From Candidatus Methanomethylicus oleisabuli (GTDB lineage: Archaea; Thermoproteota; Methanomethylicia; Methanomethylicales; Methanomethylicaceae): a DNA stretch of 64,000 nt. This document shows positions 21,751 through 34,581 of this stretch, piece after piece. Position numbers and translations under genes: made by a program. The notes below the pieces were generated by a model. That model worked only from the letters and a program-made list of their open reading frames with translations. It ran no database searches and was not told where the DNA came from. The DNA lies in NCBI GenBank assembly GCA_001717025.1, contig MAGU01000051.1:227-64226 (forward strand), read 5' to 3'. Numbering within the stretch: the stretch's first letter is position 1; each line of letters opens with the position of its first letter.

Positions 21751-22788
21751 TTGGTGGTACCCATGTCTGTTGCTAAACCAAATTTAAACTCAAAGGTCGA
21801 ATCGAATAATGCCTCGAATGGCGCCTCAGAGTCTCTGAACTTATCCAGCAACAATGTGAAACCGACGAAGTATGGCTACTTCTTGGGCTGCGTGATGCCC
21901 GCGAAGATGCCGTGGGCGGAGAAGGCAACGATGATCATATCAAAGCACCTTGGGCTGGACTTTGGTTACATGAAGGAGGCGCTCTGCTGCGCTAGACCTG
22001 GGGTGTGGAAGGCAATAAGCCCTGACTGGTGGCTCAGCCTAACGGCGCAGAACCTCGCAAATGCCGAAAAGCAGGGGATAACCATCGTCGATACATGCAA
22101 CGGTTGCTGGATCTCACACTACGAGGCCATAAAAGAGCTCACCGAGGAGCCCGAGAAGATGAAGATGGTCAACGATCAACTCGCGAAGGTCGATCTGCAT
22201 CTTAAGGGAGACGTAAAGGTCAAGCATTACCTTGAGCTCCTCCACGACGATGTGGGCATGGAGAAGATCGTCTCACGCGTCGTGCGCCCGCTAACCGGAA
22301 TAAGGGTCATGAGGCACATCGGTTGCCACGCAAGGAAGCACGACGAGACGTTGCCAAACGATTTCGACGAGATCCTCAGGGCAACGGGTGTGGAGATCAT
22401 CGACACTCCCTACGACAAGACCTGCTGCGGCCTATTGCTATACTTTGCAGACCCAAACCAAGCCATACTGGAGCGCATAGGTAAGAAGATGAAGACCGCC
22501 CAGGCACTAGATGTGGATGCATACGTGATCATCTGCTCGGGTTGCTACGACCAGTTCGAGAGGGGTGTTAAGATATACCGGGATGAGAAGGGAATAAGCT
22601 TCGAGACCCCCATTATACACTTCTCGGAGCTGCTTGCACTAGCGTTCGGCTACGAGCCGGAGGACTTTGGCATGACGCGCTGCCGACCCATAGCCGTTGA
22701 CAGGTTCATCGAGAAGGTCAAGGCAATAACCGCTGAGAACGCCAAGAAAGCGGCGGGGGCAAAGGAGAAGGGGGATGGTTTGCCATGA
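21751..22788 (+). CDS. HdrB-like protein with two complete CCG (cysteine-rich) domains
   Basis: First domain C-X31-CC-X35-CxxC (GCV...EALCCARPG...CNGC). Second domain C-X32-CC-X35-CxxC (GCH...KTCCGLL...CSGC). All ten Cys of the noncubane-cluster-binding pattern are present. Confidence 0.8.
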   Translation: MVVPMSVAKPNLNSKVESNNASNGASESLNLSSNNVKPTKYGYFLGCVMPAKMPWAEKATMIISKHLGLDFGYMKEALCCARPGVWKAISPDWWLSLTAQNLANAEKQGITIVDTCNGCWISHYEAIKELTEEPEKMKMVNDQLAKVDLHLKGDVKVKHYLELLHDDVGMEKIVSRVVRPLTGIRVMRHIGCHARKHDETLPNDFDEILRATGVEIIDTPYDKTCCGLLLYFADPNQAILERIGKKMKTAQALDVDAYVIICSGCYDQFERGVKIYRDEKGISFETPIIHFSELLALAFGYEPEDFGMTRCRPIAVDRFIEKVKAITAENAKKAAGAKEKGDGLP

Positions 22789-24497
22789 AATTCGAGTCCG
22801 ATCCAACGTTGGTCGACTTCGTCAGGACCGAGGTGGTGCCAGAGGGGACCTCATTCAGGGCTCTCCACGAGAACAGGGTTGCCGTAAGGATCAACGCCGA
22901 GGACGCCGACAGGCTGGCTGGGAGGTTCATGAGTAGATTCAATGCCCGCCTCATCCACGAGACCGCCGTGGACATGGAGGTGGAGGGGTTCGACATGGTC
23001 TACATCTACGACTTCTCCAAGGTGAAGGACCGGCTGGTAGTCGTACTTGAGGCACGGATATCTAAGGACGACCCGTCTCCGCCCTCGATTGCAAAGATCA
23101 CTTGGCAGGCGAGCTGGGCAGAGCGCGAGATACACGACCTCCTCGGCATCAGCCCCAGGGGGACGCCAGATCCGCGCAAGCAGTTCCTGCCATATGAGTG
23201 GCCAAACGCGGCAGAGAGCGGGGCAGCTCCGCCGCCACCAGAAAAGGGCCCCTCTGGTCCGCAGGAGAAGTGGATTCCGCTCGGCATCGCGCCTAACGAC
23301 GCCTATGCAACGCTTATCCCTATAGGCCCATACCATCCGGGCGTTATAGAGGGGCAGACCGTCTATGTCAAGGTTGAGGGCGAGACCGTCGTCTCTGCCG
23401 ACATAAAGACCGGCTTCCACCACAGGGGCATACAGAAGCTCATCGAACGCCGGGGCTACCACAAGGGCGTCTTCGCCGCTGAGAGGGTCTGTGGCATCTG
23501 TAGTGCTGCGCACGGCCTCGCCTACGTGACTGCGTGCGAGAACCTATACGAAGCCGAGGTGCCGGACAGGGCGCTCTACTTGAGAACCCTCCTGCTGGAG
23601 CTGAACAGGGTTCACAGCCACCTCCTCTGGATAGGCGTAGTGGCGGACGTCATTGGCTGGAAGACCGGCTTCCACCTCTCGTGGGGTATCAGGGAGCGCG
23701 TTATGGACATCATCGAATCGATAACGGGTAACAGGGTCAACTACGGCATATGGCGCATCGGTGGCATGAGCAGGGACGTGTCCAAGGAACTGGCAGAGAG
23801 GGTGCTGCCGGCAGTCAAGGCGCTCAAAGCCGAGATGGCCCAGCTTCTGCCCGAGATTGCTGCGCATTCGGTCGTGAAGTCGAGGCTTGTGGGGGTCGGG
23901 CCCCTCTCTTATGCGGACGCATTCGACGGTGGCGCGGTAGGGCCGGTCGCAAGGGCAAGCAACTGGAGGATAGACGTCAGGGCAGACAACCCCCCTCACG
24001 CGATGTACGACCCCAAGGTCATCAGCTGGGAGGTCGTCACTGATGAGGGATGCGACACCTATGGGCGCACGCTAGTGAGGGTTAAGGAACTTCTCGTCTC
24101 TTCTGAGATCATTATCCAGTGCCTCGAGTACTTGGCAAAGACAACCGGAGATATCCGGCTAGAGCCGAAGGTCATACCCGTGAACTCTGAGGGGATAGGG
24201 CTCAACGAAGCTCCCAGGGGGGAGCTAGTCCATTACGTCAGGGCAAGCGAGTTCAACATGAACCTGCCGCAGGCATACAGGATACGGACGCCAAGCTACA
24301 GGAACAACGCACTGATTCCAAAGATGCTAGTTGGCGCCAACTTGGCAGACGTGCCTGTCGTGATGGGCAGCACCGACCAGTGCCTCGCATGCACCGACCG
24401 GTTTGAGGTGATCCGCGAGGGGGGCGGCGCATCGCAGTCCATGAGCTGGGGCGAGCTCGTGGCGCTAGGCAGGAGGGGACGGTTCGGGAGGGTTTAA
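22785..24497 (+). CDS. group 4 [NiFe]-hydrogenase large subunit (NuoC-NuoD-like fusion, HycE-type)
   Basis: The N-terminal 150 aa is NuoC-like. RVCGICSAAH (RxCGxCxxxH) and C-terminal DQCLACTDR (DxCxxCxxR) supply the four Ni-Fe cysteine ligands. Length is 570 aa. Confidence 0.85.
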   Translation: MKFESDPTLVDFVRTEVVPEGTSFRALHENRVAVRINAEDADRLAGRFMSRFNARLIHETAVDMEVEGFDMVYIYDFSKVKDRLVVVLEARISKDDPSPPSIAKITWQASWAEREIHDLLGISPRGTPDPRKQFLPYEWPNAAESGAAPPPPEKGPSGPQEKWIPLGIAPNDAYATLIPIGPYHPGVIEGQTVYVKVEGETVVSADIKTGFHHRGIQKLIERRGYHKGVFAAERVCGICSAAHGLAYVTACENLYEAEVPDRALYLRTLLLELNRVHSHLLWIGVVADVIGWKTGFHLSWGIRERVMDIIESITGNRVNYGIWRIGGMSRDVSKELAERVLPAVKALKAEMAQLLPEIAAHSVVKSRLVGVGPLSYADAFDGGAVGPVARASNWRIDVRADNPPHAMYDPKVISWEVVTDEGCDTYGRTLVRVKELLVSSEIIIQCLEYLAKTTGDIRLEPKVIPVNSEGIGLNEAPRGELVHYVRASEFNMNLPQAYRIRTPSYRNNALIPKMLVGANLADVPVVMGSTDQCLACTDRFEVIREGGGASQSMSWGELVALGRRGRFGRV

Positions 24498-24499
24498 CC

Positions 24500-25474
24500 A
24501 TGGTCGACCATGTCTTCACGATCCTATCGATAGCGCTGATAATTCCAATCAGCCTCTTCCTTGGCGTGATGTATTCGTTTCTCATAAGGAAACTAAGCGC
24601 AAGGTTCCAGTGGAGGGTCGGTCCAATCGTCAGGATGTACGGCGACCTCGCCCCCGTCATCGGGTCGACTAGAATCTGGCAGCCGCTTTACGACATACTC
24701 AAGCTCTTCGGGAAGGACGCCTTGATCCCCTCAACAGCTCATAAGAGGCTCTTCACTTGGTCGCCCTACCTCTCCCTCTTCTTCAGCTTCGCAGCAGTTC
24801 TGTTCATTCCGTTCCCCGGCTTGCCGCTGCTATCCGGCACCCCTTACAGCCTCATCATAGCATCCTACCTGCTGATCGCGTCGATATTGTTCACGATACT
24901 CGGTCCAGCCGCCAGCGGATCTCCTTGGGGCGCCATAGGCGCGAGGCGCGAGGTTGAACTCTTCCTTGTCGCTGAGCTGAGCTTCGTTGCAAGCCTATTC
25001 GTGGTCGCGGTAACGAAGGGCACGCTTGTCATATCAGAGCTCGCTGGTTTCGTTGGCAGCATCCCCATGATGCTGGTCACGGCGCTCGCGGGCATAACGA
25101 TGTTCGCAGCCATGCTTGGCAAGCTGCACATCAAGCCGTTCGATATGCCTGAGGCAGAGTGCGAGATCGTTGCAGGACCATACACCGAGTACTCGGGCAA
25201 GCTACTCGGCACATACTTCCTAGCCAAGGTATTTGTTCTATACAACATGGTTGCCCTGTTCATCGCAGTATTCCTGCCCCCCCTGTCATCTTCAGTACTG
25301 TGGTTGCCCCTCTATGTCGTCGCAGCGCTGGTTCTAATATTTCTGCTTGCCGTCGTCCATGTCCTGAACCCAAGGTACACCATTGCAAAGGCGCTAATGT
25401 GGTACACAAAGATCATAGTCCCGTTGGTTATAGTTGGTTTCATAGCTGCATTCTTTCTGAGGGTGGTTGCATAG
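24500..25474 (+). CDS. NuoH/HycD/EchB-like membrane subunit
   Basis: 324 aa with about 8 TM helices and NuoH-like conserved loops. It starts 3 nt after the large-subunit stop. Confidence 0.8.
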   Translation: MVDHVFTILSIALIIPISLFLGVMYSFLIRKLSARFQWRVGPIVRMYGDLAPVIGSTRIWQPLYDILKLFGKDALIPSTAHKRLFTWSPYLSLFFSFAAVLFIPFPGLPLLSGTPYSLIIASYLLIASILFTILGPAASGSPWGAIGARREVELFLVAELSFVASLFVVAVTKGTLVISELAGFVGSIPMMLVTALAGITMFAAMLGKLHIKPFDMPEAECEIVAGPYTEYSGKLLGTYFLAKVFVLYNMVALFIAVFLPPLSSSVLWLPLYVVAALVLIFLLAVVHVLNPRYTIAKALMWYTKIIVPLVIVGFIAAFFLRVVA

Positions 25475-26062
25475 ATGTCCACACACATCAAGATCCTGAA
25501 ACAGGTCATACAAAAATACAGCTCGCCGATGACCCTGAACTATCCTTCCAGCATCGACAAGAAACGTATGTACAGCCAGATACCGGAGGGTTTGAGGGGT
25601 TTCCTCGAGAGGGATGAGGAGAAATGCGTCGGTTGCCGGGCGTGCTACATGGTATGTTCTGGAAGGGCGACTAAGATCTTCGATACTGCCGACAAGAGGA
25701 CGGTGCAGGTCTTCCACTTCAGGTGCACTTACTGTGCGCACTGCGAGGAGTGTTGCCCTGAAGATGCGATAAAGCTGACCTCAAAGTTCGAGCTTGCCGT
25801 AACTGACAGGAATGACCCGAAGGCATACGTCAACACTGACCTAAAGATGCTCTCCTGCAAGGCATGCAACAAGCCTTACCTGCCTGAGAAGATGCAGAAG
25901 CGGGTGTTTGAGAGACTGAGCGAGAAGATAAATCCGAAGGTAAAGGGCGTCGTGGTCGAGGACTACCACAAGACCGAGGGGTTCTGCCCGGAGTGCAAGA
26001 GGGTCCGTGGGGTGCTGCTCGACACACACACCAAGAAGCACATATGGCTGGAGGTCGTTTAG
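25475..26062 (+). CDS. NuoI/HycF-like 2x[4Fe-4S] ferredoxin subunit
   Basis: CVGCRACYMVCSG and CTYCAHCEECCP motifs. Contiguous with neighbouring genes. Confidence 0.75.
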   Translation: MSTHIKILKQVIQKYSSPMTLNYPSSIDKKRMYSQIPEGLRGFLERDEEKCVGCRACYMVCSGRATKIFDTADKRTVQVFHFRCTYCAHCEECCPEDAIKLTSKFELAVTDRNDPKAYVNTDLKMLSCKACNKPYLPEKMQKRVFERLSEKINPKVKGVVVEDYHKTEGFCPECKRVRGVLLDTHTKKHIWLEVV

Positions 26063-26515
26063 ATGGGTCTCATAGACAGGGCTAGGATATACTCGCCATG
26101 GGTTTATCACTTACACTGCGGCGGATGCAATGGTTGCGATATAGAGACGCTTGCCGCGCTGGCACCCCGTTTCGACGTTGAGCGTTTCGGCATTCAGTTG
26201 GTTGCATCGCCTAGGCACGCCGACATACTCTTGGCTACGGGGTGTGTCCCGAAGCAATTCATCCCTATGGTCAAGAGGGTCTACAACCAGACCCCTGACC
26301 CCAAGGTGGTCGTTGCAATAGGCGGGTGTGCCTGCGGGGGGAGCCTCTTCTACGATGAGGACCCTGAGAACTATGCCATACTTGGATCGCCTGATATGCT
26401 GATACCGGTCGATGTATATGTCCCCGGGTGCGCCCCGAAGCCAGAGCAGATCATCAATGGAGTAGTCCAGGGGATACTAAAACTGAACGAAAAGGCAACG
26501 CGCAGGAGTAAGTGA
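26063..26515 (+). CDS. NuoB/HycG-like [NiFe]-hydrogenase small subunit
   Basis: HCGGCNGCDIE, GGCACGGSLF and PGCAPKPEQI correspond to the HycG/EchC proximal-cluster cysteines. Confidence 0.85.
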   Translation: MGLIDRARIYSPWVYHLHCGGCNGCDIETLAALAPRFDVERFGIQLVASPRHADILLATGCVPKQFIPMVKRVYNQTPDPKVVVAIGGCACGGSLFYDEDPENYAILGSPDMLIPVDVYVPGCAPKPEQIINGVVQGILKLNEKATRRSK

Positions 26516-26545
26516 GCCGTTGCACCACCGAATCTGGGATGACGA

Positions 26546-27409
26546 ATGAGATCAGGCGAAACGGTAATCTATGCGATGGATTGCATCGAAGGCATGAGGC
26601 GCTACGTGAAGGACCGGCAGGTCGACGCAATAGTGACCTCTCCGCCTTACAACTTGGGCATCAGGTACGGCAAGTATGATGATGCCATCCCACGGGCAGA
26701 TTACCTCCGTTGGATGACGAAGGTCGCTGAAGAGTGCAAGCGGGTCCTCAGTGACGATGGGTCATTCTTCCTCAACATAGGGTACTCGTCGAAGGATCCT
26801 TGGGTGGCATGGGAGGTCGCCTTCCAACTGCGGAGCATCTTCGAGCTTCAGAACGTCATCCACTGGATAAAGTCGATCGCCATAGAGAAGTCTCAGGTAG
26901 GCGGGCTCGCGAATATGTGCGGCGACGTGGCTGTGGGGCACTATAAGCCGATCAACAGCGACAGGTATCTGAACAAATGTCACGAGTATATATTTCACTT
27001 CACAAAGGGGGGCGATGTGCCGCTGGACCGGCTGGCCAACGGCGTCCCTTACCAGGACAAGAGCAATGTGCGGCGATGGGGCCGCACAGCAAGGGACTTG
27101 AGGGACCGCGGCGATACTTGGTTCATACCTTACGAGACGATCAAATCGAGCAAAAACGAGCGCCCCCACCCGTCGGCATTCCCTCCTAAGCTTCCAATGA
27201 TGTGCATCAAGCTACACGGTCTATGCAAAACGCATCTGGTCATGGATCCTTTCATGGGGATCGGGGACACCGCTATCGCATGCGCTCGGCTTGGCGTGGG
27301 GTGCATAGGCTTCGAGATAGACGAGTCTTACGTAAAGGTCGCTGAAGAGCGGCTGGCAGCCGAGAGGCGGGCGCTACAGTGGCAAAGTAATGCTTTGTTG
27401 ACGCATTAA
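26546..27409 (+). CDS. DNA methyltransferase, beta-class (SPPY motif IV before FxGxG motif I)
   Basis: VTSPPYNLG is near the N-terminus and HPSAFP...[12 protein letters not shown] near the C-terminus. This is the PF01555-type order. GC content is close to the host average. Confidence 0.85.
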
Positions 27410-28874: not shown

Positions 28875-29070
28875 CCGGTCTCTGAACGGCAGGGCCCCTT
28901 CATACCACTCCGCCTCTTGGGTCTATGCCTTGGCGAAGCTAATGACAGCCGGCGCCCTCTTGCCGAGAACGATGCCTGCCATGAACATTGCGAGGCCCGC
29001 CAGAATGCAAATCTGCGCGGCATCGTCGCAATCCAATAGATATAAGGCTGCTCCTGCACATAAGAACAGG

Positions 29071-29610
29071 ATGCCTGCTAGCAGAAGCCTCCAAGGCAAC
29101 GCCCCCAATCCCCCGAACATAATCGCTTACGTGGTAACCGCTGCGGCGATAATCTTGGGTGTGTACTATCTTCCTAATTACCTCTTTCTCGAGATCTCGA
29201 CTGCTAACCACGCCGCATCTCTGCTCTCTGTCGTCGGAATAGACGTCCAGTCTGCCTGCACCGGCACCGCCGCGTTTCTCGACGACATCCGAATAGTGAA
29301 GGAGTGCACCGGCATACAGGTCATCTCTGTCTTCTTAGGTCTTATTATTCCGCTGCCAAACGCAGGATGGACGAGGAAGCTTTTGACCATATCGATTGTT
29401 TCTGCAGCCCTCTACGTCGCAAACGTGGTTCGAATAGCCCTCGAATTCTCTCTCGTCCACTTCGGGATCCTGCCGTGGTCGCTCGCCCATTATCCTATGA
29501 GCCTCCTGCTAGGGGTAATCGGCGTGGTCGTGCTCGCAGTAATTGCCGATGAGGTGCTGCCCGAGTTCGGCGCCTTCCTGTTATCTGCCATCCGCAGGCG
29601 CCCTCAGTAA
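29071..29610 (+). CDS. archaeosortase/exosortase-family membrane protein (short form)
   Basis: Polytopic. Conserved Cys in the VKECTGIQ context, and about 40 aa later the NxxR motif (VANVVRIAL), matching the exosortase/archaeosortase active-site spacing. It is convergent with and overlaps the 3' end of a PGF-CTERM protein gene. The start is uncertain (listed ORF 28930). Confidence 0.5.
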   Translation: MPASRSLQGNAPNPPNIIAYVVTAAAIILGVYYLPNYLFLEISTANHAASLLSVVGIDVQSACTGTAAFLDDIRIVKECTGIQVISVFLGLIIPLPNAGWTRKLLTISIVSAALYVANVVRIALEFSLVHFGILPWSLAHYPMSLLLGVIGVVVLAVIADEVLPEFGAFLLSAIRRRPQ

Positions 29611-30710
29611 CGCATCGGTGCCTCGGGCGCAGGAAGCGCACGCCTCTTTGACAGGAAGTATATCACAAAGAGCCCTAAACCAAGACCTATAACGATCGAT
29701 TCGAGCGGGAATCCTGGTATCTCAAGCCCCCCAACGGTATAAGAGTAATCAACCGACTCCGTCAGGTCGCCGTGGACATCTGTCACCGCTATATGGAACT
29801 CAACGGTTGCCCCACTTGCCTGCCTCGGGATGGTGGCTTTGTAGAGCGAGCCAGATCGCACCATCGAAAGCGTCTTCTCTGACCCGCCATTCACCGAGTA
29901 GATCAGTAGCACCCCCCTTACCTCATTCGCCTCAAGGCTGAGCGAGGCAGTCACCGTTACGTCATCGTCATCCTGCGGAGATTGGGGTGAGTAGCTGACG
30001 CTCGAGATAACTGCATTCAGCGGGAACGCATCCCAATAGCCATCGTTGAAGTCTGGCGGGGTCCATCCCAGCGGGTTATTCTCTCCGGTAGCCTCGACCC
30101 AGATCCAGCCATTACCCCTGCCATCGAGTATGTCCCAGTAGATGTTGGCGTTTGGGTACTCCGGGAGCCAGATCAATAGCGCCACGTGGGACTCCGTCAG
30201 CACCAGCGCCACGTCGAACCCTGCGCCAAGGTATGTCGTTGCGCAAAGGAGCGCGAGATCCTCGCAGTCGCCTATCGCTACGATGTTCTTCTCCTCGTCA
30301 AAGGCATGGGCGGTCTCGTCGGCATTCCATGCCCATTCCTCTTGCGCCTCTCCTCCCATGAAGACGTTATCCTCGTCGTAGCCATACTCGGTCCACCTTT
30401 GGACATACTTCAGTATCGCCTTGGCCCTCTGAACTTCGTCCGGGTACTCCTCAAGGAAGCCCTGACCGATGCTGTAAGCCGCCTCCTTGTTGCTGCCAAT
30501 CGTCTCGTATGCGAGATTTGGCATGTAGCCGTCCTCGCCGCAGCAGTAGTTCCTACTGTAGCCCCAGCTATCGTACCATTCCCCACTCTTATATGTGAAC
30601 GTTGGTGGGTAGACGTGGCCGCTTGTATAAGCGCTTACGCCGGCCTGCGATCCCATCAGAAGCAGGACTATGACTCCAAGGATGCATCCTCTCTGTATGC
30701 CCATCAACAT
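29604..30710 (-). CDS. secreted transglutaminase-like (Cys-His-Asp fold) protein with C-terminal PGF-CTERM sorting signal
   Basis: N-terminal signal peptide. GDCEDLALLC...SHVALLIW...WIWVEATGE fits the transglutaminase-like core. The C-terminus EIPGFPLESIVIGLGLGLFVIYFLSKRR is a PGF motif plus TM helix plus basic tail. Confidence 0.65.
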   Translation of the reverse strand: MLMGIQRGCILGVIVLLLMGSQAGVSAYTSGHVYPPTFTYKSGEWYDSWGYSRNYCCGEDGYMPNLAYETIGSNKEAAYSIGQGFLEEYPDEVQRAKAILKYVQRWTEYGYDEDNVFMGGEAQEEWAWNADETAHAFDEEKNIVAIGDCEDLALLCATTYLGAGFDVALVLTESHVALLIWLPEYPNANIYWDILDGRGNGWIWVEATGENNPLGWTPPDFNDGYWDAFPLNAVISSVSYSPQSPQDDDDVTVTASLSLEANEVRGVLLIYSVNGGSEKTLSMVRSGSLYKATIPRQASGATVEFHIAVTDVHGDLTESVDYSYTVGGLEIPGFPLESIVIGLGLGLFVIYFLSKRRALPAPEAPMRY

Positions 30711-30716
30711 CCTCTT

Positions 30717-31196
30717 CTAGCCCAACGGGAGCACAAGGCTGGCATACATGATCAGCCCTAAGAACACCTCGTAGCTGAACATGAAGATGCCTACCGCTAT
30801 AGGCGATTTGTTCACGTTGTCCAAGTCGATGCCAAAGAGCCTCAGCTTAGCAAAGACGATGTAGAAGAGCCACCCGAATAGTAGGCTCACCGCAAAGCTC
30901 ATCACGACGATTAGGAGGCGTTCCAGGTTGAAGTATGCCCCGATTAGCACGTTCTGCCCAAGGAAGAATGGATTTACCATAGACCCGTAAATCACAAGAC
31001 CTGCAAAGACAACGAAGCCGCTGACAAAGAGGCTCGTCGCTATGGGGTCCTCACGGATCTTCCCAAACTCGTTGATCTCCGTGGTGATGTAAGCTATTCC
31101 TCTTATCCCAAAATACCCCAATAGAAGGCATATTAAGCTCGATACAAACGCACGTGCAAACCAAAGCAACACCGACGTCAAGAATTCCGTGCTCAC
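30717..31196 (-). CDS. hypothetical four-TM membrane protein
   Basis: 159 aa with four hydrophobic helices and a GTG start. It lies downstream of the PGF-CTERM protein on the same strand. Confidence 0.4.
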   Translation of the reverse strand: MSTEFLTSVLLWFARAFVSSLICLLLGYFGIRGIAYITTEINEFGKIREDPIATSLFVSGFVVFAGLVIYGSMVNPFFLGQNVLIGAYFNLERLLIVVMSFAVSLLFGWLFYIVFAKLRLFGIDLDNVNKSPIAVGIFMFSYEVFLGLIMYASLVLPLG

Positions 31197-31521: not shown

Positions 31522-32625
31522 TCAAGCATTGAGCGCACCTGTTGTTGAGAGAACCTTCACCGAGCGGGAATTGAACGCAATCCAGACCGTTTTCCCGCGG
31601 TCAAGGTTCGCCCCTATGAACGCATTTGCCATCAAAACAACATGGAATATGTGCCCTCTGTCGATCCGCACGCTGACCTTCACTATCGCACCAAGATCGG
31701 CATAACCCTCGACGATGCCCTTGAACAAATTTTCTGACTCCACATCAGGATTAGTTATGTGTATATCGTCCGAACGTATGCCAAAAACACATTTAAGCGC
31801 CTCACCTTCACCACACCCTCGCCATCCAGACCCCCCTGCCGACGCTTTTATTATCGCCCCTCCAACATCTACCTCGAGTAGACCATTGCTGCAACGCACC
31901 ACCTGTCCATTGAATATATTCTCATAACCAAGGAAACGCGCAACAAACTCGTTCTTGGGATTAGAGGCTATCTCCTTTGGCGATCCAGTCTGCATTATCA
32001 TCCCATCCCTCATGACGGCTATTCGGTTAGCGATACTGAATGCCTCAATCTGGTCGTGGGTCACGTGCAAAAATGAAGTTCCAGCCTCCGATTGCCTCCT
32101 CTTTAGGTAGTCCCGTAGCATCTGCCTAGTTTCAGGATCTGTTGCGCTCAAAGGCTCGTCCAGCAGCACAAGCCTTGGCTCGATAGCCATCACCCTGGCC
32201 AGCGCCACCTTCTGCATCTCCCCGCCACTGAGCGAGGCAGGAAACCTGTCAGATAGGTCAAGAATACCAAGCTCTGCGAGGACGCGGTCTGTCTTTGCCC
32301 TCAGCTGCGCCGCAGGCATGCCCCTAATCCTCAATCCGAACTCTACGTTTCGTCTCACCGTCATGTGAGGGAATAGCAGGCTCTGCTGTGGGACATACCC
32401 TATGCCGCGCCTCTCCGTGGGGATGTCCGTGATGTCTAATCCATCAAGCAAGATCCTTCCCGACTCCTGCCTGTGGATGCCCATTATTGTTTCCAGCAGC
32501 ATAGTCTTTCCGGCACCCGTTGGTCCTAGGATTACAAAATACTCGCCCGATCTTACCTCGAGTCGTATGTCCTTCAGCGAGAGGTCGCCGCACGATCTGT
32601 TGACCCCTTCGATTTTGAGGCTCAC
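31522..32625 (-). CDS. molybdate/tungstate ABC transporter ATP-binding protein with C-terminal TOBE domain
   Basis: Walker A GPTGAGKT, ABC signature LSGGEMQKVALAR, Walker B LLDEP. The about 120-aa C-terminal extension is typical of ModC/WtpC TOBE domains. Confidence 0.85.
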   Translation of the reverse strand: MSLKIEGVNRSCGDLSLKDIRLEVRSGEYFVILGPTGAGKTMLLETIMGIHRQESGRILLDGLDITDIPTERRGIGYVPQQSLLFPHMTVRRNVEFGLRIRGMPAAQLRAKTDRVLAELGILDLSDRFPASLSGGEMQKVALARVMAIEPRLVLLDEPLSATDPETRQMLRDYLKRRQSEAGTSFLHVTHDQIEAFSIANRIAVMRDGMIMQTGSPKEIASNPKNEFVARFLGYENIFNGQVVRCSNGLLEVDVGGAIIKASAGGSGWRGCGEGEALKCVFGIRSDDIHITNPDVESENLFKGIVEGYADLGAIVKVSVRIDRGHIFHVVLMANAFIGANLDRGKTVWIAFNSRSVKVLSTTGALNA

Positions 32626-33497
32626 GACCTACCCTCCGTTGGTCTAAGAAACCTACTCTGCCTAGTTAATAGCCTGCTGAATGCTATCAGAATAACGATA
32701 GCTATCATTATTAGCAGTCCATTTATCGGCAACGCTCTGGACAGCCCCTCAGTGACGAACGTATCATAGAGGTCTATTGGGGCTGTTATAGGGTAATATG
32801 CCAAAATCACGACCGCTCCGAACTCGCTCATGGACCTTGCCCATGTTAGGAGGCAGCCTGTCAGCACGCCCCTCGCCGCCAGCGGAAATGAGACATGCCT
32901 GAATACCTGTAGTTCACTGGCGCCTAGGCTTCTTGCAACATGTTCCATGGCTGGGTTGATGGAGATAAATGCGTCTTGAGCACTCCTGATCATAAATGGG
33001 GCGCTCACAAAAGCCATGGCTACGACTATTCCTATGACCGAGTCAACGAACCTAATGCCCAGCTTATTAAAGAAGCCTCCAATCATGGAGTTGGGTGTCA
33101 GGATCATAAGCAGGGCGATGCCTGCTGCGTTGTGGGGTATGAAGATAGGCAAATCGATAAGCGGTTCTATGAAATTTTTACCTGCAAATGAGTATCTTGC
33201 AAAGATGTATGCAAGAGGGATCCCAAAGATCATTGTAAACAGCATCGATAGGGACGCGCAATATACGCTTGTGATGATTGCGTTGCGTGTCCCAGAATCC
33301 TCAAGTGCTCCCGGTATACCTGTGGCTGAGCCCACTATAGAGGACGCAATTGGGAGCATGAGGAATATTACCATACCCGCGCCCAGAACTGCGGATGCAA
33401 TCATGAAAGGTGACCTTGTTCTAAGCCAGCTCAAGCCACGCCCTCCCGTGCTATTCCGCAGAGCATATCCGCTCTGCTGGGTGATGCTTTCATTCAA
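32622..33497 (-). CDS. molybdate/tungstate ABC transporter permease
   Basis: Six TM helices and an EAA-like loop (SMSEFGAVVILAYYP). It overlaps the ATPase gene by 4 nt. Confidence 0.85.
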   Translation of the reverse strand: MNESITQQSGYALRNSTGGRGLSWLRTRSPFMIASAVLGAGMVIFLMLPIASSIVGSATGIPGALEDSGTRNAIITSVYCASLSMLFTMIFGIPLAYIFARYSFAGKNFIEPLIDLPIFIPHNAAGIALLMILTPNSMIGGFFNKLGIRFVDSVIGIVVAMAFVSAPFMIRSAQDAFISINPAMEHVARSLGASELQVFRHVSFPLAARGVLTGCLLTWARSMSEFGAVVILAYYPITAPIDLYDTFVTEGLSRALPINGLLIMIAIVILIAFSRLLTRQSRFLRPTEGRS

Positions 33498-34581
33498 CTT
33501 GGGGCTCTGCCTCTATAAAAGGAATCGAAGACGCAGGTATTGCCGATGCGTTGTCAGTATAACATGTGCCGAATACTGGCATATGAGCTGCCTCGAAGAT
33601 GCCCCTCCCTGTGCCATTGACAAGAAACTCGATAAATGCTTCAGCCTGTGCTGCATTTGGCGCATTCTTGGGTATGGTGAGCCCGTAATATGTCGTGCTG
33701 CCGGTACGATCTAGATTCACCGTTGCAAAGCGTTGATGCTGATACGTCACCATCACCGTGTTGTAGTTTTGCTCCTGCGACGCGTCGCCTAGGTTTATCT
33801 CCTTGGGCAGCTCGACATATGAAAAGTTCTGCTGGATCGCCATGCTCTTATAAACGAAGCAGTAGTCGATTGTGCCTGACTCGAGCAGTGGTATCAACAT
33901 TACGCCACTCGACCTCAAGTAAACTTTGCTATTAGCCGGTGTCTGGGTTTCCGGGACACGTATGTAAGAGCCGTTGACTCCGTTATAGGACACGAACTGT
34001 GGATTGAAGTTTTTACCGATCAGCTCATAAAAGAGTTGGGGCTGTCCGTAATAGCTCTCCGCAAGCTTGATTGTGATCAGCGAGCGGTAACCTAGTGCAT
34101 CGATCTCAGGATTGGCAAAACCAAACGTCACATCGTCTCTCGTTAGTATCTCATACCAGTTCGATGCATCTATCTCTGAGGCAAAATTGCTTTGGTTCGT
34201 ATACGCTAGCACTACCTCGTTGCTAGCAAACCGTATGTACCAGTCTGAAAAAGGCTCAGTTGAGTTGGGCATACTCGTATTATACATAATTAATGGAATA
34301 AGCGAATAATCAGCTACCATCAACAGATCGACCTTCTCGCCCAGCTCGGTCACGTGCCTGATCACTTGGATGCTGCCGTGCCCCTCTATCTGTAGGTCCA
34401 CCGTTGGATTCTCACTCTCGAATGCCTCTTCAGTCAGTCGCAGGGGATACAGGAGGCTATCCGCGCAGTAAATTTTAAGGACCGTTGTCTGCTGCGCAGC
34501 CCCTTGGCCACTCTGATAAAAAAAGACCGATGCCACCGCCGCTACAGCGACGATGGCCAATGCTATGTAGAGTCTTCTCAT
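33490..34581 (-). CDS. molybdate/tungstate ABC transporter substrate-binding protein (WtpA/ModA-like)
   Basis: N-terminal signal anchor. LKIYCADSL...EGHGSIQVIRHV resembles the ModA/WtpA oxyanion-binding N-lobe. It overlaps the permease gene. Confidence 0.7.
   Translation of the reverse strand: MRRLYIALAIVAVAAVASVFFYQSGQGAAQQTTVLKIYCADSLLYPLRLTEEAFESENPTVDLQIEGHGSIQVIRHVTELGEKVDLLMVADYSLIPLIMYNTSMPNSTEPFSDWYIRFASNEVVLAYTNQSNFASEIDASNWYEILTRDDVTFGFANPEIDALGYRSLITIKLAESYYGQPQLFYELIGKNFNPQFVSYNGVNGSYIRVPETQTPANSKVYLRSSGVMLIPLLESGTIDYCFVYKSMAIQQNFSYVELPKEINLGDASQEQNYNTVMVTYQHQRFATVNLDRTGSTTYYGLTIPKNAPNAAQAEAFIEFLVNGTGRGIFEAAHMPVFGTCYTDNASAIPASSIPFIEAEPQVE

Follow-up and report, generated by a model that had tools for sequence, protein, structure and literature searches.

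Open reading frame (ORF) calls in a 64,000-nucleotide stretch of Candidatus Methanomethylicus oleisabuli DNA (contig MAGU01000051.1; the 64-kb window) revealed a cassette of three genes at 29071-31196, which probably encodes a dedicated archaeosortase/target pair together with a membrane protein of the DUF350 family. The archaeosortase-family gene (29071-29610, + strand; hereafter the sortase) and the gene for its putative target (29604-30710, - strand; hereafter the cargo) lie tail-to-tail. Their 3' ends overlap by 7 nucleotides (nt), where the cargo stop codon (29604-29606, -) and the last codons of its tail fall. The cargo ORF, which is supported by homologues, encodes a secreted, putatively transglutaminase-like protein of 368 amino acids (aa), which also has a beta-sandwich and carries a sorting signal near its C-terminus. 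The DUF350 gene (30717-31196, -) is situated 6 nt upstream of the cargo gene. A sequence-only reading of the window had described the sortase and the cargo, and both ORFs are found where it had placed them; the pair turned out to be conserved and dedicated-looking, but the co-oriented third gene had been overlooked.

All sortase homologues start at a conserved MPxS, and we therefore take the gene to begin at ATG 29071 and to encode 179 aa before the stop codon. The 179-aa product is identical to the database protein P0001 (P-numbers denote proteins in our homologue sets and L-numbers denote loci). A 226-aa ORF from TTG 28930 was rejected, as its first 47 codons are rich in Ala, Arg and Pro and the homologues begin at MPxS. 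Thus, the suggested length of about 170-225 aa is right in that the protein is short, whereas the TTG ORF is too long. A TATA-like element read from the sequence, ATAGATATAAGG (29038-29049), about 27 nt upstream of the ATG, fits the shorter gene model and would suit an archaeal transcript that is leaderless or has a short leader.

A short archaeosortase outside the named subfamilies

Searches with hidden Markov models (HMMs) showed that the sortase matches the exosortase/archaeosortase family model TIGR04178 with 36.7 bits (cutoff 23; profile positions 2-95 of 97), in agreement with the family membership proposed before. PF09721 is annotated, by precomputed assignment, on all 99 sortase homologues. 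Every named archaeosortase subfamily scored below its cutoff: heimdallarchaeosortase (NF045528) was highest with 54.9 bits (cutoff 130), and the others were archaeosortase H (ArtH, NF041736; 46.2, cutoff 200), ArtA (TIGR04125; 27.4, cutoff 75), ArtE (25.3, cutoff 95), ArtB (19.9, cutoff 150) and ArtF (14.5, cutoff 150). The ArtD model gave no match for the window sortase and 27.3-34.6 bits (cutoff 125) for two relatives. Relatives across the sortase clade, including its Asgard members, likewise stayed below the cutoffs of the named subfamilies. On these scores the sortase belongs to the exosortase/archaeosortase family at the generic level only and to no named subfamily. The ArtB, ArtE and ArtF profiles span only 153-166 positions, so short archaeosortases are not unusual.

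An alignment of 32 sortase homologues (A2; 36-70% identity) showed strict conservation of the residues expected of this family. Invariant are cysteine (C) 79 within CTGxQV (codon 29305-29307, +), the predicted catalytic nucleophile at the outer end of the second transmembrane (TM) helix; asparagine (N) 118 and arginine (R) 121 within ANxxR (ANVVR, codons 29422-29433, +); glutamate (E) 125; and histidine (H) 140 within LPWSLAHxP (LPWSLAHYP in the window; codon 29488-29490, +), which directly precedes TM4 on the predicted outer face. The sequence-only reading had pointed to the cysteine of ECTG and, about 40 aa further on, to the N-x-x-R of ANVVRIAL; Cys79 and Arg121 are 42 residues apart, and their invariance bears this out. 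His140 completes the Cys/Arg/His set described for the archaeosortase family in Haft's preprint. No Arg following H140 is invariant in the 32-sequence alignment, which includes no ArtA. Hydropathy analysis revealed four strong TM helices and, together with the positive-inside rule (basic residues 102-103 and 175-177), predicts that Cys79, Arg121 and His140 face the outside of the membrane. This predicted outer face is also that of the cargo motif described below.

The sorting signal of the cargo and its curated relatives

The cargo carries a tripartite signal at aa 330-357 (29640-29723, -), consisting of EIPGFPLES, the TM helix IVIGLGLGLFVIYFLS and the basic cluster KRR. All three elements had been recognised in the earlier reading, which let the protein end there; however, 11 further residues (ALPAPEAPMRY; 29607-29639, -) follow KRR. 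Among 118 homologues the pattern I-P-G-F-P-x-E-S-I-I-x-G-L-x-x-G is conserved at 90% or more, whereas the linker ahead of it and the tail beyond the basic cluster vary; these cytoplasmic tails range from 0 to 40 or more aa and are conserved neither in length nor in sequence. ArtA can process a tripartite signal that lies away from the extreme C-terminus (literature including PMC9263693), so that the 11-aa tail is in principle no obstacle.

The signal had been assigned to the PGF-CTERM class processed by archaeosortase A, which the profiles do not support. The PGF-CTERM model TIGR04126 (cutoff 24.5) revealed no match at E<=10 to the whole cargo or to its tail, whether or not the 11-aa extension was included. 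A haloarchaeal-style control tail scores 55.4 bits, which confirms that the model was present and working. The best curated match is the Loki-CTERM model NF033507 (cutoff 19.9), which gave 15.1-16.4 bits for the cargo tail and 25.0 bits for the family consensus; about the cutoff is reached by 40 of the 118 family members. In the window the cargo is the sole ORF with a tripartite tail of the P-[G/E]-F type.

The sortase accompanies cargos with an intact motif

A scan with the sortase profile of one genome per GTDB species yielded 62 loci. Wherever the sortase is about 50% or more identical to that of the window (L012-L027 and L037), the cargo is present, the DUF350 gene is found as far as the contig allows, and the arrangement is the same; all 45 more distant sortase loci lack the cargo/DUF350 arrangement. 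Species scan and genomic-context look-ups together gave 21 distinct loci with an intact [IL]PGFP cargo, among them 16 GTDB species representatives (L012-L027), and in each of the 21 the sortase is convergent with the cargo and adjacent to it. The surrounding genes are otherwise unrelated. Judged by gene order, the pairing of sortase and cargo is more than chance, and in a neighbour-joining tree the cargo-linked sortases form one clade. The cassette occurs in Methanomethylicia and many Bathyarchaeia, a spread that does not fit the niche-specific module suggested by the sequence-only reading. Homologues with a named source come from Candidatus Methanomethylicus/Verstraetearchaeota and Bathyarchaeia, and the closest named genome is that of Ca. 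Methanomethylicus mesodigestus V1 (aa identities: sortase 70%, cargo 81%, DUF350 92%).

Cargos with a decayed motif show the reverse association. Five such cargos were sampled (P0217 DFPNILREP, P0205 EIPSLLLEP, P0212 EFPSFLWEL, P0189 EILGFTLEQ and P0216 EFPWIIIDF), and a tblastn check of the available flanks detected a sortase at none of the five loci; unrelated genes occupy the downstream position. The difference between 21/21 and 0/5 corresponds to a Fisher p of 1.5e-5 if the loci are treated as independent. As decayed forms are interspersed among intact ones in the cargo tree, at least three losses of sortase and motif are suggested, and the sortase appears to have been lost repeatedly together with the motif. 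Of the evidence available, this co-loss speaks most strongly for an action of the sortase on the PGFP motif. All five decayed-motif loci retain DUF350 directly upstream of the cargo, and its persistence where the sortase is gone argues for a role alongside the enzyme and not in the sorting of that enzyme.

The cargo as a candidate Cys-His-Glu enzyme

The order of the cargo domains is a signal peptide, a highly conserved N-terminal domain (aa 28-235; 30006-30629, -) and a beta-sandwich (aa 236-327; 29730-30005, -). The Sec-type signal peptide, aa 1-27 (MLMGIQRGCILGVIVLLLMGSQAGVSA; 30630-30710, -), was recognised from its n-, h- and c-regions. It has a hydrophobic segment at aa 1-19 and an A-x-A-like VSA ahead of the predicted cleavage site (AGVSA|Y), and it is conserved in homologues.

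At least 655 cargo homologues were collected, and apart from Loki-CTERM on the tail, no NCBIfam model matches the family. The transglutaminase model PF01841 (gathering score 23) gave no direct match in the window cargo, and 13 bits were reached by close homologues. When 1.84 billion representatives were searched with a cargo profile, E-values of 1e-36 to 1e-46 linked the cargo to distant relatives that consist of the N-domain only, and these pass PF01841 with 34.0, 30.8, 26.4 and 25.6 bits. As this search was run with the whole-length cargo profile, repeat proteins containing the beta-sandwich dominated its list, and the N-domain-only relatives were selected by hand. A profile search of PDB sequences with the cargo alignment A1 revealed nothing useful.

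An AlphaFold2 (AF2) model of the N-domain built from 119 sequences has a mean predicted local distance difference test score (pLDDT) of 90.3 and a predicted template modelling score (pTM) of 0.90. An earlier full-length model from 35 sequences had been poor in this domain (pLDDT 67), and its Foldseek matches covered the beta-sandwich only. With the N-domain model, most of the top 16 Foldseek matches in the PDB, including the best, have the transglutaminase fold; LapG, 3isr, 3kd4, TgpA, PeiP, PNGase, FXIIIa and TG2/3 are among them. C149 (GDCED; codon 30264-30266, -), H175 (SHVALLIW; codon 30186-30188, -) and E206 (WVEATGE; codon 30093-30095, -) follow the canonical order; none of them varies in alignment A3, with its 119 sequences, or in A4, where identity falls to 28%. 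Aspartate (D) 148, E150, N129, D131 and E132 are also invariant in the 118 close homologues and 19 distant relatives (28-38% identity). The transglutaminase-like Cys-His core proposed by the sequence-only reading was therefore right: the distant relatives that pass PF01841, the modelled fold and the invariant Cys149-His175-Glu206 agree, and they make the N-domain a candidate Cys-His-Glu enzyme.

The beta-sandwich resembles CBM56 and FnIII domains. It matches PF22184 below threshold (21.3 bits, cutoff 27), and Foldseek detected CBM56 (5t7a) and FnIII structures for this part of the model, where pLDDT is 80-97. The same domain recurs as tandem repeats, in up to 42 stretches, in giant proteins (up to 7,119 aa; P0220-P0369) that are putatively located at the cell surface. 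Several of these end in TM helices and basic tails of their own, and a few carry PGF-like motifs, such as P0249 (ALPGFNYLL...RRR) and P0311 (IPGFPIEA...KKK).

DUF350 and the distant relatives of the cargo

The 159-aa DUF350 protein belongs to the YjfL family of membrane proteins with four TM helices; PF03994 matches it with 33.5 bits (cutoff 26; profile positions 4-133 of 133). Its identity across the complete cassette loci is 61-92%, with the exception of L024 (about 50%), where it stands beside a truncated cargo. DUF350 is the most conserved member of the cassette and the core partner of the cargo. Split or truncated cargo frames occur in L019 (5518-6638) and L024 (5484-5948), perhaps as pseudogenes or through frameshifts in the assembly of metagenome-assembled genomes.

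Distant transglutaminase-like relatives of about 275-320 aa without the beta-sandwich were found in 80 metagenome loci of the Joint Genome Institute (L079-L158; e.g. L084:2486-3804). A DUF350 gene is present in 73 of these loci, directly upstream and on the same strand in 68, and most of the seven exceptions are cut by contig ends. A sortase homologue was detected within 3 kb in none of the 80. The presence of DUF350 in 73 of 80 loci that have no sortase nearby suggests that DUF350 and the transglutaminase-like protein form an old and broad core, to which the sortase with its Loki-CTERM-like signal would have been added in one clade of Methanomethylicia and Bathyarchaeia. Together, the distant relatives and DUF350 give the impression of a two-gene module that is widespread and uncurated. 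The tails of these relatives end in ...GIHISPFFSVLAMMWLLSLFRRRR or ...QPFPFFGIIGLLWFMSLFRRRR and are weakly JDVT-CTERM-like (21.5 bits, cutoff 27), and a PrsA/PpiC-like isomerase next to the gene in L084 hints at bacterial hosts. Bacterial DUF350 (YjfL) has been noted in PspA/polyamine operons, and one may speculate about a link to polyamine-dependent transamidation.

Related sortases in Bathyarchaeia and Asgard archaea

In Bathyarchaeia, a sister clade of short archaeosortases (40-48% identity) is paired with an adjacent target of its own, which lies directly upstream in 19 loci (L005 (5325-5792), L032, L034, L035, L038, L040-L042, L052, L053, L055-L057, L059, L061, L064, L067, L072 and L073). 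This is a secreted, CarboxypepD_reg-like protein of ~158 aa that ends in ESHVPVPEFP, a TM helix and RRTKRKK. Its PEFP tail scores 16.2 bits on the PEF-CTERM model (cutoff 23). On the basis of this gene order, the sister sortase and the PEFP protein are a second dedicated pair. L040 and L073 encode a second PEFP-tailed protein.

A third clade consists of Hermod-, Prometh- and Thorarchaeota sortases that are 42-49% identical to the window sortase (L033, L036, L039, L043, L045, L046, L048, L051, L054, L058, L060, L062, L063, L065, L066, L068 and L070). A 287-aa protein of L051 has a tail, FPIPGFPFEAVIVG...LRRRG, that exceeds the Loki-CTERM cutoff with 25.1 bits, and the Asgard clade is a candidate for the cognate enzyme of Loki-CTERM.

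Genomic surroundings of the cassette

The 5' flank (22785-27409) contains a cluster resembling a membrane-bound [NiFe] hydrogenase or complex I (Complex1_49kDa, NADHdh, Fer4, Oxidored_q6) and, at 26546-27409, an N6/N4 DNA methyltransferase gene. The 3' flank (31522-34581) encodes a molybdate/tungstate-like ATP-binding cassette (ABC) importer with TOBE and SBP_bac_11 domains. Pfam assignments of these flanking genes were transferred from the syntenic locus L001. A functional tie of the cassette to the hydrogenase, methyltransferase or transporter genes was dropped; only L001 and L002 share the synteny and the other loci differ, which places the flanking genes outside the cassette.

Proposed function and alternative explanations

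The data are best accommodated by a cassette with a dedicated archaeosortase/target pair, in which the sortase cleaves the cargo, the cargo receives a lipid anchor and the resulting surface enzyme works with DUF350. We give this model a probability of roughly 0.7. The 6-nt gap and the shared strand suggest that DUF350 and the cargo are co-transcribed. The cargo would be exported via Sec and held transiently in the membrane by its C-terminal helix, and the 179-aa sortase would expose Cys79, Arg121 and His140 on the outer side of the membrane. The sortase may recognise IPGFPxES together with the conserved face of the neighbouring helix and cleave the cargo at IPGFP, after which the helix would be exchanged, most likely, by analogy with ArtA, for a membrane-lipid anchor; we infer cleavage and lipidation from homology only. 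The mature product would be a surface-tethered Cys-His-Glu enzyme of the transglutaminase fold on a beta-sandwich stalk, and could act on envelope proteins as a protease/isopeptidase or as a cross-linker, together with the DUF350 protein.

Several observations weigh against this model. The losses cluster in the phylogeny, the loci cannot be counted as independent, and some contigs are short (about 1.25 kb downstream in L077, for example). The scan for other substrates covered the window, with its one such tail, and 5-kb flanks, so the relation would be one-to-one by extrapolation. Sortase and cargo are convergent and hence not co-transcribed. The cargo tail scores below the curated Loki-CTERM cutoff (16.4 vs 19.9) and is unmatched by PGF-CTERM. 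As for the enzyme, the fold match is weak (best E 4.5e-4, template modelling score 0.36-0.40), the window cargo is below the Pfam transglutaminase threshold and belongs to the superfamily by transitive links, and the triad ends in Glu, not in the usual Asp.

Among the alternatives, the one that survives best is that the sortase only releases the cargo. Cleavage at the motif would then shed a soluble enzyme into the medium or S-layer space, or switch the enzyme on or off, without lipid transfer. The comparative evidence is equal to that for the anchoring model, and the sequence does not tell release from lipid anchoring; a one-step transpeptidase action of archaeosortases is unsettled even for ArtA. 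Lineages free of the sortase keep a plain TM anchor, which implies that the enzyme can work while membrane-tethered and that the sortase changes its state. On the other hand, ArtA processing in H. volcanii is coupled to lipid attachment and requires PssA/PssD, and the beta-sandwich stalk suggests surface display over a free enzyme. We regard release without lipidation as improbable, though less so than the explanations that follow.

A second alternative concerns the function of the cargo and is compatible with any processing model. The cargo may be a non-catalytic adhesin or structural envelope protein that has retained the transglutaminase-like fold, as have menin and XPC. The lack of a direct Pfam transglutaminase match, non-enzymatic fold members among the structural matches, Glu at the position where Asp is usual and the CBM-like domain all speak in this direction. 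The invariance of C149, H175, E206, D148, E150, N129, D131 and E132, however, is a pattern typical of a maintained active site, and makes loss of catalysis an unlikely explanation.

It is more doubtful still that the C-terminal helix stays as a permanent anchor and that the adjacency of the genes reflects something other than enzyme and substrate, for instance a cargo that regulates or acts on the sortase, or a shared envelope pathway. Distant relatives of the cargo do use a plain TM helix with RRRR and have no sortase nearby, and the convergent genes are not an operon. Yet motif and helix face are at least 90% conserved while their flanks vary, the decayed motif coincides with a missing sortase in all five sampled loci, and the sister clade pairs with a different protein bearing a related PEFP tail. 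Finally, a canonical system, with the sortase a shortened ArtA and the cargo one of many PGF-CTERM substrates, is very improbable: the PGF tripeptide, TM helix and basic cluster of the cargo and the presence of ArtA among the weak matches of the sortase (E = 2e-6) are outweighed by the low ArtA score of a 179-aa protein with four TM helices against a 271-position profile (27.4 bits, cutoff 75), by the failure of TIGR04126 on the tail at E<=10 where the control reaches 55.4 bits, by the Pro and Glu that follow PGF in IPGFPxES, by the absence of a second such tail in the window and by the strict gene adjacency, which is typical of dedicated systems.

Taken together with the sister clades, a broader but tentative reading, to which we give less credence than to the anchoring model, is that a widespread envelope module of DUF350 and a transglutaminase-like protein captured a private miniature archaeosortase, and that the clade of this sortase, with the PEFP sister group and the Asgard members, comprises the processing enzymes for Loki-CTERM-type signals across TACK and Asgard archaea. 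If so, nature itself would have supplied a genetic demonstration that enzyme and signal are specific to each other, in that sortase and motif were repeatedly lost together, and the cassette would be a tractable entry into the building and remodelling of the cell surface by uncultured TACK archaea.

NCBIfam holds no model covering the sortase clade, the cargo family or the DUF350 subfamily, so that annotation can be improved for all three, and a literature search revealed no paper naming both archaeosortase and transglutaminase. An archaeosortase with a dedicated, adjacent target is an established principle, of which this cassette is an undescribed branch. Nearly all that is known of archaeosortases comes from the ArtA of a single haloarchaeon, and the family was assigned to 'a subset of Euryarchaeota' in a review of 2018. 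The cassette extends the archaeosortases to a compact 179-aa form in Thermoproteota, with relatives in Asgard archaea, and provides this form with a single, identifiable putative substrate. The decay of the motif in sampled loci without the sortase ties enzyme and motif comparatively, and a minimal enzyme with one substrate would be a convenient system for the transpeptidase question. For DUF350 we obtain a first concrete context, as the apparently obligate partner of a surface protein with a putative transglutaminase fold.

Comparison with known archaeosortase and transglutaminase-like systems

The window sortase and ArtA both belong to a family of polytopic membrane Cys proteases with Cys/Arg(/His) at the outer face. 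In H. volcanii ArtA, Cys173 and Arg214 were found to be critical by mutagenesis (PMC9263693), and their spacing of 41 aa compares with 42 aa in the window sortase; a second critical Arg of ArtA is Arg253. Both kinds of substrate combine P-G-F, a TM helix and a basic cluster, and in neither system does the signal have to lie at the extreme C-terminus. In contrast to ArtA, whose profile spans about 271 positions and includes further helices at the N-terminus, the window sortase has 179 aa and four TM helices. It fails the ArtA model, the cargo tail, with its IPGFPxES, fails PGF-CTERM, and residues follow KRR whereas the PGF-CTERM signal ends in the basic cluster at the C-terminus. One adjacent target replaces the many dispersed ones of ArtA, there are no pssA/pssD genes near the cassette, and the hosts are Thermoproteota (Methanomethylicia/Bathyarchaeia) and not Euryarchaeota.

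Loki-CTERM is the best-matching curated signal for the cargo tail family, but the tail of the window is below its threshold, the host belongs to TACK and not to Asgard, and a single dedicated target adjoins the enzyme. Similarly, heimdallarchaeosortase and ArtH are the top-scoring named subfamilies and are comparably short (profiles of 199 and 202 positions), while the window sortase is far below their equivalog cutoffs.

For dedicated one-to-one systems, Haft's criterion is that enzyme and single target are encoded in neighbouring genes in nearly every genome, and the adjacency in 21 of 21 loci matches it. Such neighbours are also known from JDVT-CTERM with its adjacent intramembrane protease, where conserved residues likewise lie inside the TM helix of the signal; here, however, the enzyme is an archaeosortase and not an Rce1/CPBP-like protease, the genes are convergent and DUF350 is the third gene.

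The top structural neighbours of the cargo are bacterial transglutaminase-like cysteine proteinases and their relatives, namely LapG, the periplasmic domain of TgpA and the pseudomurein endoisopeptidases PeiP/PeiW (PF01841 clan). The cargo differs from them in its low similarity (12-15% identity, template modelling score about 0.4), in Glu as the third triad residue, in its fusion to a beta-sandwich and an archaeosortase signal and in its obligatory link to DUF350. What they have in common is a Cys-His-acid triad whose residues come in one order and sit on a helix and two strands; the targets of these neighbours are proteins or polymers of the envelope, beyond the cytoplasm.

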